From the NCBI GenBank assembly GCA_964016885.1, contig OZ024758.1, forward strand, positions 31,310,001-31,374,000: a stretch of 64,000 nucleotides of DNA, written 5' to 3'. The DNA comes from Eledone cirrhosa (lineage: Eukaryota). Of the stretch, positions 2,256-63,373 are shown one piece after another. Below the pieces are notes generated by a model. It was not told where the DNA came from and searched no databases. It saw only the letters and a list, made by a program, of their open reading frames with translations. The stretch's first letter is position 1. Every line of letters begins with the position of its first letter. The translations under genes and the position numbers were made by a program.

Positions 2256-2922
2256 TTACGTATATATATGCATATATATATATGCATATATATATATGCA
2301 TATATATATATTTATATATATAAAGATATATATATATATATATTTATATATATAAAGATATATATATATATATATATATATATATAAAGATATATATATA
2401 TATATATATATATAAAGATATATATATATATATATATATATATATATATATATAGATATATATATATATATATATATATATAAAGATAGATATATATATA
2501 TATATAAAGATATATATATATATATATATATATATATATATAGATATATATATATATATATATATATATATGTATAAAGATAGATATATATATATATATA
2601 AAGATATATATATATATATATATAAAGGTATATATATATATATATATATATATATATATATATATATATATATAAAGATATATATATATATAAAGATATA
2701 TATATATAAAGATATATATATAAAGATATATATATAAAGATATATATATATATAAAGATATATATATATATATATATATATATATATATATATATATATA
2801 TATATATATATATATATATATATAAAGATATATATATATAAAGATATATATATATATATATAAAGATATATATATATATATATAAAGATATATATATATA
2901 AAGATATATATATAAAGATATA
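2256..2922. repeat. (TA)n array with recurrent AAAG interruptions
   Basis: Directly visible; the YI-repeat ORFs here are artefacts. Confidence 0.95.
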
Positions 2923-3622
2923 TTATATATTATGGAATACTGTTGGCTTTTCGCTACAATGTTTTCTATACCTTTCATTTATATATTTATACTCGGATTT
3001 CTTTCCTATGAGTGCTTAAATTATTTGTGACTAATCCCGGTATTTTTTATAAAAAACCGCGATAATATTGCTTTTTGCTGAACTCCTTATTGTAGAGTTT
3101 TTTTTCGGAATGTTTTTGACTGTTGTTTCTTGTAAACAAACATTCGTCTCATTCTGACGTCACCAGCCCTGTCTTTCCACATGTGCGTTTTATTTTTCAT
3201 AATCACGCATGACGGTGAACTAGCCTGTTTTTAAATTACCTTTTTGGCATATTAATCTGTGACAATCTTGGTTATCGTGTTGAGCTCTGCTGAGGATCGA
3301 ATTCCAACCGTGACCATCTCCACTGAAAGTTTTCGTAAAATAGTCTTTAAGACTATACAGAGCATTTGAAGTTTTTCCAAATTGAAGGATGAGTATTTTA
3401 AACTTTATTTTATCATGAGTTAAGGCTCTATTGATATTTCCCTGGATTTCACTAAATTCTGTGGATGAATCTATATCCTGATTCTCTTTGAGATGAGTCT
3501 GAATTATTTTTCCCACATCTTACGTTAACTATTTTTCCCATGTTGACGCTATAGTCACTTATATATTATGGAATACTGTTGGCTTTTCGCTACAATGTTT
3601 TCTATACCTTTCATTTATATAT
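2923..3622. mobile_element. Unclassified ~700-bp insertion with ~64-bp direct terminal repeats
   Basis: ttatatattatggaatactgttggc...cctttcatttatatat at 2923-2986 and 3559-3622; TA arrays on both sides. Confidence 0.6.
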
Positions 3623-3705
3623 ACATAAAGATATATATATATATAAAATATTAAAAAAATAATGAATAAAACAATGAAACAGTTCCTTATATTAAACAAA
3701 AAAAG

Positions 3706-3859
3706 TTCATTATTTAACGATCGTTTCTAGGATATATATGTGTTAGAATTGGCATGCATATTCAAAAGATCTATGTACAAAATTATACAAAATTATACAA
3801 ACTATCAAAATTAAATATACATACCAACACATATATATGCCGTCTTCAGAAATAATGAA
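3706..3859 (-). ncRNA. Type I hammerhead ribozyme with ~115-nt stem II insert
   Basis: Minus strand: ttcattattt CTGAAGA ... GAAA cgatcg TT aaataatgaa; 10-bp stem I; 13-bp atatatatgtgtt/aacacatatatat stem II; palindromic stem III. Confidence 0.75.
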
Positions 3860-4079
3860 ATATATTTATTGATAATAACAACAATTCAAAATTACAGGTC
3901 TGTTTGGGAACAGAGTTCAAATTGACCAATGAAAACACAAAAAGTTTATACAGTTAGGTGTGTGTATATATGTAAGTAACTTCGTTCACAGATATGCATA
4001 AAAATATATGTTCACATGCATACGCATGCCGAAAAGATGTATGTAAATACAAAAATTCAAGGCTAATGTCTCTGTATGT

Positions 4080-58733: not shown

Positions 58734-58860
58734 ATATATATATATATATATATATATATATATATATATATATATATATATATATATATATATATATATA
58801 TATCTTTATATATATATATATAGAGAGAGAGAGAGAGAGATATCTTTATATATATATATA

Positions 58861-61445
58861 TTTCGTTTTTGAATTTGTTTAGCAAGATTCTTTATCTGAA
58901 ATCGTGTGTTGAAACCGATATTGTTATACTTTGGGAGGGTCATGTTGCCAATAAGAAACACACGCACCAGTTGTTTCACTTCAATTTATTACATATTTAT
59001 TATATATTTATAAATCCACAAACTTATAAATTTCTGGTGGGTTGGTTGGTTTCACAACCAGATAGTTGTTTATATATAGTCATAGTCCTTTCGTCACACA
59101 CTCTGTGACCTCTTCAGTGACTGGGGATTCCTGTCTTTGTTTCTGTGTCTTTCCTTTCTTCTGTCCTATGCCATTTTGTTTCTGTGTGTGTGTTGTGTGC
59201 TCAATTTGCGCATGCGCCACATCCGGGTGTCTGTGTGTGTTTGTGTTCATTTATCTATTTGTTTATTTATTTACATGTTGTTGGTTGGTTGTTTGTTCTA
59301 TGTGTGTGTGTGTTTTCATTTTGTCCTTAATTGTAAGTTGTGATGTTGCTGTTCCACTCATATTTTCTATTTAATTTTGGTTGTAATTCTTTTATGCTTA
59401 CTGCCTCTGTAATTTGCCTAAACATTGCATCTTTTCTGTGTGTGGATTCTATTTTTATTTCTATGTTCTCTAATTTACCCTTGTGTTATATCTTAGCATG
59501 TTGGTAGAGTACAGATGATTCTTTATTATCTTGAAGGTCTCGCCAGTGTTCATTTATTCGTTCCCCTATACTACGAGCTGTCTCACCTATGTACACTATA
59601 TTTTTGTTTCTACATTGTCCTTCAGTACATCTTATGCTATACACTACATTTCTAGTTTTACAGTTAATATGGGGGCTTATTTTACAGGTTATACATTTCT
59701 TATCTATACATGAGGGTCTTTGGAATGGGTATGTCTTGCTAATAAGTGTTTTTACGGAGGTACCTGGTCTTTCTACTATCTTAATATTGAGTTTATGTTT
59801 ATTTAGGGCCCTTCTAAATTTGTAGGCTAGTTCGCCTCTAGGGGTTGTATTGATGAACATTACACTCTGGTATTTATTGCTATCATACCATGAGTTTATT
59901 CTATTGGCCTTGTTCCTAGTTCTTTCTATTCTATTCCAAAATTTGCTCCTATACAAGGGGCAGGTCCCATTTATGTCATTATTTACCATTTTTTCCCATT
60001 TGGTTCTGGCTCCTCTATACACTCTGATTCTATCTCTCTGATTGTAGCCAGAGAACTGCATACGGTGGATGAAGTGTTGTATGTGTCTCTCTAGTTCTAC
60101 GGGGTTGCACATGCGGGACACATTTCTCATCACCCGTACCAAATCCGCAATCAGTATGTTGATTTTGGTATGGTCCGAAATGGCCGAGTTTCGGTGGATC
60201 AGATGTTTGGAAGTCATGGGTTTGGCATAATGGGAATGGAGGATTTGTTTTTGGTTGTTAATGGTATCTAACCAGAGCTCTGTGTCTAGTACAGGTAATC
60301 GATGGTTGGGGTGTCTACTTGGGTAGTCTATAGTAACTCTAATGCTCTGGTGGATGGAGTTAGCTATTTGCTGGATGCTTTCCATTGTGTTTTTCTCTAG
60401 TTCCTGACTGTTCTTTAGTGGGGGTGTCTTAACTACGATGTTTATATCATCTACGTAGCGGGAGTACATTAATAGGGTTAAGCTGTCTTCTAATTGTTCT
60501 TTAAGTTTTTGTTTAAGTCTACTGTCCCACCATACCATGAATAAGTTAGCTATGTCGCCTGCAATGCTAACACCAATGGCTGCACATTCCTCTTGGGCAT
60601 ATTTTTTACCATTAAATTTGAATATATGTTCCTTAAGGGTTAATTTTATGCTGGCCCCTACCGCATGTGCAATCATTTTCTTCAGTTCATCGTGGTTTTC
60701 GGGTGTCCGTATGGCTCTGGTCCACCCGTTCCATCTATCTGTGTGGGTTTTCTTGGCCATTGAGGTAATGGTAGGTGGTCTGTCTCTTGCTGGTCTTGTA
60801 GGGCACAGGTTGCTAAGGTCATAAGTGTCTAGGTAACTATTACTATGGGTAAGTTTAAGTAGAAGTCCCAGCTCACTGGTATCAATCCCACGGAACTCAA
60901 CCTTGCTCTCGCTGATCATTTCTACGCATTTCTCCACAGCAAAATCCACGTCAATAGATGGATACAGGGACACAACATCCATACTGCCTATTATGCAGTT
61001 TGTTAGGTCCCCAGATCTGTTACTCACGCCGATTCTGCTGAGGAGGTCCTCCGTGCTGTCACATACATCTGGGGACATCTCAATGATGGGGCGTATGATC
61101 AGGGAGAGGAAGTAGGACAGTCTGTAGTTACTAGCAATGTTAGCTCCACAGACTGGCCGTGTTGGTGGTCCCGCGACAGGGTCACAGCCCGTTTTATGGT
61201 CTTTTCGAAGCCCATACAACGCCGGCACGTCATTGTTCCAGGCCTGGAAGTTGTTGGCAGTCCTTTTGTTGGGCTGCATTATATTCGTCCACATCACCAT
61301 ATGGGCATTGAGGGCTTTTTCTCTATCCTCATGCTCCTATGGTGTTACCTCTCTTGTGTTAGTGATGTGGGGTTGCATTGCCTGGATGTAGTTTGGCAGG
61401 CTCTCAACCGACATTCTGCCAGACTTGTCTGTTGGAAAGCATGGA
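58861..61445 (-). mobile_element. Neptune-like PLE family N2, 5'-truncated, with pLTR, HHR (59078-59122) and tail (58861-58918)
   Basis: RT plus GIY-YIG homologous to 23940-26030. Confidence 0.93.
59330..61440 (-). pseudogene. PLE RT-GIY-YIG ORF, premature stop at 59486 and a frameshift near 61335
   Basis: 604-aa ORF with LYGLRKDHK, DVVSLYPSI, YSRYVDD, CIDKKCITC, YIGETAR. Confidence 0.92.
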
Positions 61446-61462
61446 AAGCAGAATGTCGGTTG

Positions 61463-63006
61463 ACATATATATATATATATAAATATATATATAAATATAT
61501 ATATAAATATATATATATATAAATATATAAATATATAAATATATATATATATAAATATATATATAAATATATATATATATAAATATATAAATATATATAT
61601 AAATATATATATATATAAATATATATATAAATATATATATATATAAATATATATATAAATATATAAATATATAAATATATAAATATATATATAAATATAT
61701 ATATATATAAATATATAAATATATAAATATATATATATATAAATATATAAATATATAAATATATATATAAATATATATATATATAAATATATAAATATAT
61801 AAATATATATATATATAAATATATAAATATATAAATATATATATAAATATATATATATATAAATATATATATAAATATATATATATATAAATATATAAAT
61901 ATATAAATATATATATAAATATATATATATATAAATATATATATAAATATATATATATATAAATATATATAGATATAAATATATATATATATAAATATAT
62001 ATAGATATAAATATATATATATATATATATAAATATATATAGATATAAATATATATATATATATATAAATATATATATATATATATATATATATATATAT
62101 ATATATATATATATATATATATATATATATATAAATATATATATATATAAATATATATATATAAATATATATATATATATATATATATATAAAGATATAT
62201 ATAAAGATATATATATATATATATATATAAAGATATATATAAAGATATATATATATATATATATATATATATAAAGAAATATATATATATAAAGATATAT
62301 ATATATATAAAGATATATATATATATATATAAAGAAATATATATATATAAAGATATATATATATATATATATAAAGATATATATATATATATATAAAGAT
62401 ATATATATATATAAAGATAAACAATTAAGTTAAAGTATTTGTTTTTATATATATAAAGATATATATATATATATAAAGATATATATATATAAAGATATAT
62501 ATATATAAAGATATATATATATAAAGATATATATATATATATATATATAAATATATATATAAATAAAGATATATATATATATATATATATATATATATAT
62601 ATATATATATATATATATATATTAAGATATATATGTATATATAAAGATATATATAAAGATATATATATATATATATATACATATATATATATATACATAT
62701 ATATATATATATATACATGTACATATATATATACATATATATATACATATACATATATATATACATGTATATATATACATATATATATATATATACATGT
62801 GTGTGTTTGTATATATATATATATATATATATATACATGTGTGTGTTTGTATATATATATATATATACGTGTGCGTATATATATATATATATACGTGTGT
62901 GTATATATATATATATATATATACGTGTGTGTATATATATATATATATATACGTGTGTGTGTGTGTGTGTGTGTGTGTGTGTGTGTGTGTGTGTGTGTGT
63001 GTGTGG
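61463..63006. repeat. (TA)n/(TAAA) array, then AAAG-interrupted, (TACA) and (GT)n tracts
   Basis: Directly visible. Confidence 0.95.
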
Positions 63007-63373
63007 ATATAAAAATCTAGAGAAACCTAGTAAATGAAGCTTAAGACAATCCAAATAAAATAAACAAAAGAAAATAAATGTATTTTTTCTAATTAGCCGC
63101 GCAATTACTTAGCCTTGCTTACACATGACAAAATGATAGATTTAGGTTTCATTCCTGACAGTAGATCGATATATAATCAATACTCTAATTAATATATTCC
63201 TTTCACTTATCTCAATTACTCATATAAACAAATTCTTTCATAACCCTGCTGTACATATTAACTGGTAATTAATCATAGTTTGGACAAATATATTTACCCC
63301 AGTCACACAGAACTAAACAATCATATACACACAATTACATATATATATATATATATATAAATATATATATATA

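Follow-up and report, generated by a model that had tools for sequence, protein, structure and literature searches.

The 64,000-nucleotide stretch of Eledone cirrhosa DNA analysed here (C19:31,310,001-31,374,000; the window) lies in the interior of a chromosome (31.3 of 40.2 Mb; assembly size 3.0 Gb) and has a GC content of 29%. Arrays of (TA)n and various repeats make up a mosaic, and most of the sequence is a nest in which Penelope-like elements (PLEs), long and short interspersed nuclear elements (LINEs and a SINE) and a mariner element are set between TA arrays that for the most part carry a common short interruption, AAAG on one strand and CTTT on the other (Table 1). An earlier note on this DNA had observed that the strand of the interruption tracks the orientation of the PLEs, and had proposed either telomerase-like addition of repeats or polar targeting. 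The pattern is real but was drawn from one nest. Our work supports the idea that the interruption is a local variant of the TA arrays of this nest, which are likely derived from a single ancestral (TA)n that expanded and was repeatedly split by TA-seeking insertions.

The Pfam support for the identity of the PLEs is weak but consistent: a reverse transcriptase (RT) and a GIY-YIG domain share one open reading frame (ORF) at 59489-61336 (RVT_1 and GIY-YIG, E 7e-4 each, both under the Pfam cut-off), a GIY-YIG domain at 57981-58484 passes the cut-off, and YxDD and YIGxT motifs are present. Comparison of the window with itself revealed direct or inverted pseudo-long terminal repeats (pLTRs) with one-sided tails. 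Hammerhead cores (CTGATGA...GAAA) occur in families A, C, D, F, G, I, K, M, P and Q, and they face the tailed ends in A, C, D, F, I, K, M, P and Q; the Rfam HH9 matches of families M and G stay below the gathering score, and a pattern search found no hammerhead core in family B. Matches to Rfam microRNA families, also below their gathering scores, were set aside as hairpin or TA noise. The Hydra clade is defined by a DKT motif and a CxCX5C linker in the parts of Craig et al. 2021 (PMC8557442) covered here. Family D has DKT at 65 and the linker CNCRRASGC, and E and C have the same CxCX5C linker; no RWK motif was found within the sequence present of the 5'-truncated family D. Family B encodes an RT (YVDD) followed by CX4CxxC and a GIY-YIG domain with two inner cysteines, of the CCHH that, along with a CX2-5CxxC linker, marks the Neptune endonuclease region; its ORF gave a single weak RT match in a PDB search. 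By these motifs, D, E and C appear Hydra-like and B Neptune-like. The family B ORF also contains a long asparagine-rich stretch of AAT/AAC repeats (23082-23669), and a shorter one is found in family D (37100-37138). The tandem hammerhead repeats with 312-bp and 467-bp units (15342-15837, 33441-35173, 43671-44450, 55591-56577) resemble non-autonomous PLEs or retrozymes. Among the same arrays lie an AP-endonuclease LINE, a second LINE, which we take to be RTE-like, a tRNA-like SINE and a mariner element; the query 49095-49846 had no match among the listed RNA runs. A perfect palindrome of 208 bp (13059-13266) is located within an unclassified repeat. Immediately before the nest, positions 1-1338 hold a decayed LINE-like stretch with 71% similarity to another copy, L113, in the left flank.

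Table 1. Features of the nest and of the elements within it (positions in the window)
Position	Strand	Feature	Details
1616..62951		Nest: barcoded (TA)n arrays with intervening elements	First motif at 1623; both edges located
1616..3645	+	AAAG arrays	1616-1638, 2261-2930, 3616-3645
6822..7162	-	Family M, non-autonomous hammerhead repeat	467-bp unit; Rfam HH9 below gathering score
7223..9079	-	Family E, Hydra-like PLE, 5'-truncated	ORF 7893-9014, CxCX5C linker
9122..11818	+	Family A PLE, inverted pLTR, tail right	Followed by CTTT array 11819-12327
13558..15341		AAAG array 13558-13741 and mixed array 14216-15341	Flank the tail-left family M copy
13742..14215	-	Family M, further copy	
15342..15837	+	Family K, non-autonomous hammerhead repeat	312-bp unit
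15888..17379	+	Family B PLE, tail right	Inverted body, GIY-YIG on minus; followed by CTTT array 17380-17591
17592..18057	+	Family F, palindromic PLE end, tail right	Followed by CTTT array 18058-18402
18403..20995	-	Family C, Hydra-like PLE, tail left against CTTT array (exception)	Right boundary approximate; GIY-YIG part inverted (plus strand)
20996..22264	+	CTTT arrays preceded by a family I end	Twice-repeated 44-bp fragment; AAAG at right end
22265..26596	+	Family B, Neptune-like PLE, near full-length	Direct pLTRs; ORFs 22419-24698, 24819-26066
26660..27394	+	Family B, short copy, tail right	CTTT on either side
27649..28404	-	LINE, 3' part	DUF6451
28424..30760		Inverted duplication centred on family P palindrome 29053-30016	Mirrors family G tail piece, array and tRNA-like SINE; CTTT arm 28522-28849, AAAG arm 30393-30664
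30794..33440	-	Family A copy 30794-31215 and family G copy 31796-33318, tails left	Mixed array 31216-31795, AAAG array 33319-33440
33441..35359	-	Family K, inverted tandem, tail left	Includes CTTT array 35174-35359
35360..40377	+	Family D, Hydra-like PLE, tail right	ORF 35645-37825 (DKT, YRDD, CxCX5C); hammerhead at 40193
40378..41845	+	Largest CTTT array	Higher-order units; 42 motif copies
41846..43670	+	LINE fragment	Apurinic/apyrimidinic (AP) endonuclease domain
43671..44450	+	Family M, further copy	
44451..45594		AAAG arrays and ends of families I (44571) and Q (45243-45374)	Both ends sense minus
45595..49036	-	Family A, inverted insertion, tail left	
49095..55590		Tandem duplication: mariner 5' half, AAAG array, tail-left family C copy, mixed array	Mariner ORF cut at 49846 and 53209
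55591..56577	+	Family M, further copy	
56578..58861		CTTT arrays around family H PLE and family B pLTR piece	Family H 57138-58465, GIY-YIG on minus, tail left (exception)
58862..61464	-	Family B PLE, tail left against CTTT (exception)	RT plus GIY-YIG ORF 59486-61336
61465..62951	+	AA-interrupted array grading to AAAG, then CA/TG types	Right barcode edge

In the window, TCTT (126) and AAGA (74) are the top two interruptions between TA runs, with AA, TT and CA ranking behind. The earlier note had seen the motif in nearly every array; among the arrays of at least 40 bp, which alone were counted, 28 of 44 carry its strict form, and seven of the 16 motif-free arrays sit within a CA-type stretch (4473-6114). 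The variable spacing that had been described was confirmed (median 28 nt, range 8-198) and is mostly even. Polarity runs in blocks: AAAG at 1.6-3.6 kb, CTTT at 11.8, AAAG at 13.6-15.3 (internally mixed), CTTT at 17.4-28.8, AAAG or mixed at 30.4-33.4, CTTT at 35.2-41.8, AAAG at 44.5-50, mixed at 52-55.6, CTTT at 56.6-58.9 and AAAG at 61.9-63 kb. Footprints of transposon excision were rejected as a source of the motif since they would not yield runs of one polarity. The claim that tail-right insertions are flanked by CTTT and tail-left ones by AAAG holds only in part: the tail-less flanks of 9122-11818, 15888-17379 and 45595-49036 lack the motif, the tail-side array of the copy at 30794 has only an AA, the insertion at 45595 has one AAAG about 200 nt off, the array 31216-31795 is mostly CTTT (14 vs 4 AAAG), and those at 14216, 21666, 52150 and 55022 are of mixed polarity.

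In the inverted duplication 28424-30760 both arms keep nearly the same order on opposite strands, and the arrays at 52150 and 55022 have a common order; these belong to the tandem duplication 49095-55590, in which the tail-left insertions at 49940 and 53327 are indeed duplicates, as had been noted. At the level of the assembly, this conservation argues against a strand-dependent base-calling error. An artefact of sequencing or assembly in TA hairpins is hardly credible: the window contains many palindromes, but such an artefact would strike TA arrays everywhere, whereas only one of 347 unselected arrays has the motif, and the inverted arms, although diverged, agree in the succession of their interruptions from one strand to the other. 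A read-level look via the assembled contigs of one study listed no variant at the motif and no bridging piece; positions 1200-2100 were swamped by multi-copy repeats.

Several lines of evidence indicate that the motif is a mark of the locus rather than of the PLEs. First, it is absent from other copies of the same elements. From 799, 1729 and 644 candidate tail matches for families B, D and C, respectively, the best 30 of 40 scored were sampled for each family; none of the 87 sampled copies outside the window has the motif at its tail end, while 81 of them abut a TA run (a few of the 87 are tandem neighbours, making the independent number slightly lower). A tail repeat encoded by the family was rejected, as the family D junction has CTTT in one of 30 copies, that of the window. 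For family A, whose tail words are too common for a DNA search and which was therefore counted by tail-plus-motif patterns, only seven tail ends in the 3.0 Gb fit; even in a motif-rich sample, the motif stood at 10 of 164 tail ends. Second, it is rare elsewhere: the single occurrence among the 347 arrays from loci unselected for the motif contrasts with the 28 of 44 in the window (Fisher p 2e-30), and spaced samples totalling 200 kb contain the strict motif once. Third, the nest has sharp edges: 19 of the 20 flanking 10-kb tiles (200 kb) lack the strict motif, and the sole tile with it lies 99 kb to the left. Taken together, absence from other PLE copies, rarity in unselected arrays and sharp edges lead us to conclude that the motif marks loci, not elements. 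Moreover, the LINE, the SINE and the mariner element of the window carry the same barcode as the PLEs.

The same logic seems to apply to other loci. Exact AAAG-doublet patterns have 135, 108 and 72 clustered matches in the genome (about 39 loci from one pattern), and two further AAAG nests are built similarly (L174-L178, C4:143.699-143.732 Mb, about 33 kb; L179-L182, C8:40.922-40.935 Mb, about 13 kb), one of them containing a 6.8-kb array. Unselected loci have private multi-copy interruptions of their own, i. e. CATAAA, AATATG, AACA, CAGA and GACA: three neighbouring arrays of L049 contain 30, 21 and 16 copies of CATAAA, and among L049, L050 and L024 the further private barcodes AATATG (28 copies) and AACA (17 copies) were found. 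A complex interruption is common to neighbouring arrays in 5 of 21 pairs as compared to 3.4% of random pairs. At L277 (G000:C19:19878601-19884600), a long TA array is interrupted by a family B tail-end piece in at least six tandem copies. Since a 44-bp fragment of an element end likewise occurs twice within arrays of the window (21275-21318, 21622-21665), anything caught in an array can apparently be amplified.

These observations weigh heavily on the proposal that a PLE RT repeatedly copies a short UA/AAAG-containing RNA template onto a nicked end and thus builds its own landing pads. PLE and telomerase RTs are related, according to the parts of PMC8557442 covered here, the spacing of the motif is variable, the AAAG strand is the primer strand at most tailed ends, and the array in the mariner ORF lies at a site without a prior TA run. 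However, a template acting in trans should leave the motif at PLE ends throughout the genome; the 87 sampled copies, the confinement of the motif to nests, its sharing by ten families and by non-PLE elements, and the many different motifs at other loci all speak against this activity, and the Anolis PLE RT initiates internally on its own RNA, with no homology to the target site, as stated in the covered parts of PMC11167929. Extension of both broken ends predicts AAAG to the left and CTTT to the right of an insert; this was found for 6 of 51 inserts. Repeat synthesis of this kind by a retroelement would be important if true, but the data go against it, and we regard it as most improbable.

The flanks of the inserts rather suggest that existing arrays were split. 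The same polarity is found on both sides of 38 of the 51 inserts (10 of 14 in the window, 28 of 37 outside; p 0.0006), as expected if an insertion divides one array. A sequence of events can be proposed: (i) A TA array would have acquired the variant TA-AA-GA-TA in two steps, or picked up a few nucleotides from the end of an element. (ii) Slippage and unequal exchange would have multiplied this variant, as the variable, even spacing and the higher-order units suggest. (iii) At least ten PLE-type families as well as LINEs, a SINE and a mariner element are indeed found between the arrays, and for most inserts the polarity to the left is also that to the right. (iv) Each insertion would leave two daughter arrays and thereby a larger target. 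(v) Inverted duplications flip the barcode, as 28424-30760 shows, and so create AAAG and CTTT blocks, and tandem duplications and deletions between arrays would complete the mosaic. At L192 and L104, as at 28424-30760 in the window, palindromic PLE ends are surrounded by inverted duplications that extend into the flanking arrays, which suggests that the flanks were copied by fold-back when the element inserted or later. The earlier note had held that the polarity needs an explanation; descent from one array together with inversions provides one. The CTTT tilt of the tails would be a secondary, unproven effect of block structure and chance, perhaps with a modest preference as to which strand is nicked.

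Four observations do not fit easily with descent from a single split array. An array cuts the mariner ORF at a position at which none of 11 other mariner copies has one. Empty alleles of the nest did not come to light. Genome-wide, AAAG doublets outnumber the reversed pattern 2.3- to 3.3-fold (135:41, 108:45, 72:32). Finally, the tails in other AAAG nests also tilt to CTTT (14:4 ends), which the nest model alone does not predict. As to the mariner element, its 3' half was not found in the window, which is most simply read as a deletion that reached the next array; we infer that microhomology mediated it, but local templated copying could also have supplied the array. More generally, breaks at cruciforms formed by TA runs may have been mended from a nearby array, so that the barcode spread among once-separate arrays. 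Such repair would put an AAAG array into the mariner ORF and would account for polarity switches within single arrays, and TA repeats are reported as nuclease-sensitive fragile sites in the covered parts of PMC12972899. Yet the motif is missing from the TA arrays immediately beyond 62951 and from those of CA type at 4473-6114, and splitting is simpler for most junctions. Repair from neighbouring arrays is thus rather unlikely as the explanation of the nest, even though both processes can coexist.

The question remains whether the PLEs, in addition to splitting a barcoded array, read its strand. Tailed ends were called by the asymmetry of the inverted repeats and the strand of the hammerhead or ORF. 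In the window, the nearest motif on the sense strand is CTTT at 14 ends and AAAG at three (p 0.013, with ends that are not independent; the duplicates 49940 and 53327 have one vote). The reported tracking of tail orientation is thus borne out, with a third exception, 57138, which the earlier note had missed besides 18403 and 58863. Together with the other nests the ratio is 28:7, and with one vote per nest, excluding the window, it is 10:2 (p 0.039; the table was merged by hand, and for two entries the adjacent array holds just one motif). As several counting schemes were tried, a p near 0.04 is weak. Control interruptions do not tilt: at 145 ends the counts are 21:23 for CA/TG and 14:13 for AA/TT, and in multi-copy arrays 11:12 and 12:8. 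In view of the flat controls a general purine-strand rule was dropped, and so was an oriented TATA-box effect, as TATATAAA arises from AA interruptions, too. A structural count of 188 tailed inserts that is blind to family gave 9:4 in multi-copy arrays and 5:2 for single motifs.

The tilt is absent when the genome is searched with unbiased patterns. These tail-plus-motif patterns, which reach about 64 nt from the tail, gave 4:2 for family A and 8:12 for family B outside the window (total 12:14, p 0.85); for these two families the genome-wide correlation on which the earlier note had staked its proposal fails. Among the family B matches inspected, 11 of 12 AAAG and 6 of 6 new CTTT cases have a single motif; some of these are ends of other repeats, so that they may be later than the insertion, although this is an after-the-fact rescue. 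Junctions are no nearer to the motif than expected by chance (5 of 28 within 5 nt vs a null of 17%, p 0.56), and a fixed offset of the cut from the motif was dropped on this ground. The orientation of family H is opposite in both of two cases. The two SINE arms of the window (28860-28933 and 30311-30384, one event) have AAAG on the sense strand; judged by eye and uncounted, the 3' ends of SINEs and LINEs in the window and several on C4 and C8 seem to be more often AAAG-sense, opposite to the PLE tails.

Polar targeting would mean that, on top of the nest's history, the PLE ribonucleoprotein nicks and primes from the AAAG strand, leaving about 75-80% of tailed ends CTTT-sense. The counts in the window and the other nests, the one-vote ratio and the flat controls agree with this, and so does the 5'-ATT-3' cut preference of the purified Anolis PLE protein; the genome-wide patterns (even if mostly single interruptions that possibly postdate insertion), the modest family-blind ratio, the chance distances of the junctions and family H do not, and the Anolis protein cuts both strands (both points from the covered parts of PMC11167929). 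We consider a real tilt, and polar targeting as its cause, possible but not probable, and it is doubtful that the endonuclease-RT of more than one PLE clade reads a four-base asymmetry in otherwise palindromic (TA)n and primes mostly from the AAAG strand. If true genome-wide, the tilt would be a rare in vivo readout of the strand nicked by a PLE, and barcoded nests would record both this choice and the growth of TA arrays into self-enlarging transposon sinks. On the whole, the nest is a large and well-marked example of how a TA microsatellite can serve as a growing sink for transposons, and it gives a weak hint of strand choice. The targeting of TA by PLEs is already known, but pure (TA)n conceals target-site duplications and strand choice. 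The likely descent of many arrays from one is a route to the local swelling of repeat-rich genomes.

The window can be compared with several known systems. In the sections of PMC8557442 covered here, Hydra and Naiad PLEs show a (TA)n insertion bias for which a role of the zinc-finger linker has been proposed. Families D, E and C share with the Hydra clade the C-terminal GIY-YIG domain, the CxCX5C linker, hammerhead pLTRs, (TA)n insertion, the inverted 5' copy and the one-sided tail, and D also shares DKT; tails are 30-40 nt there as compared to 35-150 nt here, and those sections describe neither nests with a common interruption nor an orientation set by interruptions. Family B resembles the Neptune-type PLEs (CX2-5CxxC linker) in its predicted CX4CxxC linker, inner GIY-YIG cysteines and (TA)n site. 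MuTAnT and other (TA)n-targeting transposons also land in TA microsatellites, and TA is longer on filled than on empty MuTAnT alleles; however, these are DNA transposons in short pure arrays, with no barcode described in the covered part of PMC4486113. Neither barcoded TA nests nor an interruption-based orientation of PLEs was found in the literature searched, with limited coverage of subscription journals and supplements outside its scope, and the part of PMC13282606 covered contains nothing on either subject. Telomerase and the telomere-associated Athena/Coprina PLEs have a related RT, but unlike the latter, the copies in the window have an endonuclease, are chromosome-internal and have no common added repeat. 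Interrupted (compound) microsatellites grow by slippage and unequal exchange, and the arrays studied here are like them in their variable even spacing, higher-order units and locus-private variants. Unlike in ordinary interrupted microsatellites, the array has been cut into about 30 pieces over 61 kb, and thus the private variant becomes a lineage mark by which these arrays can probably be traced to one ancestor.

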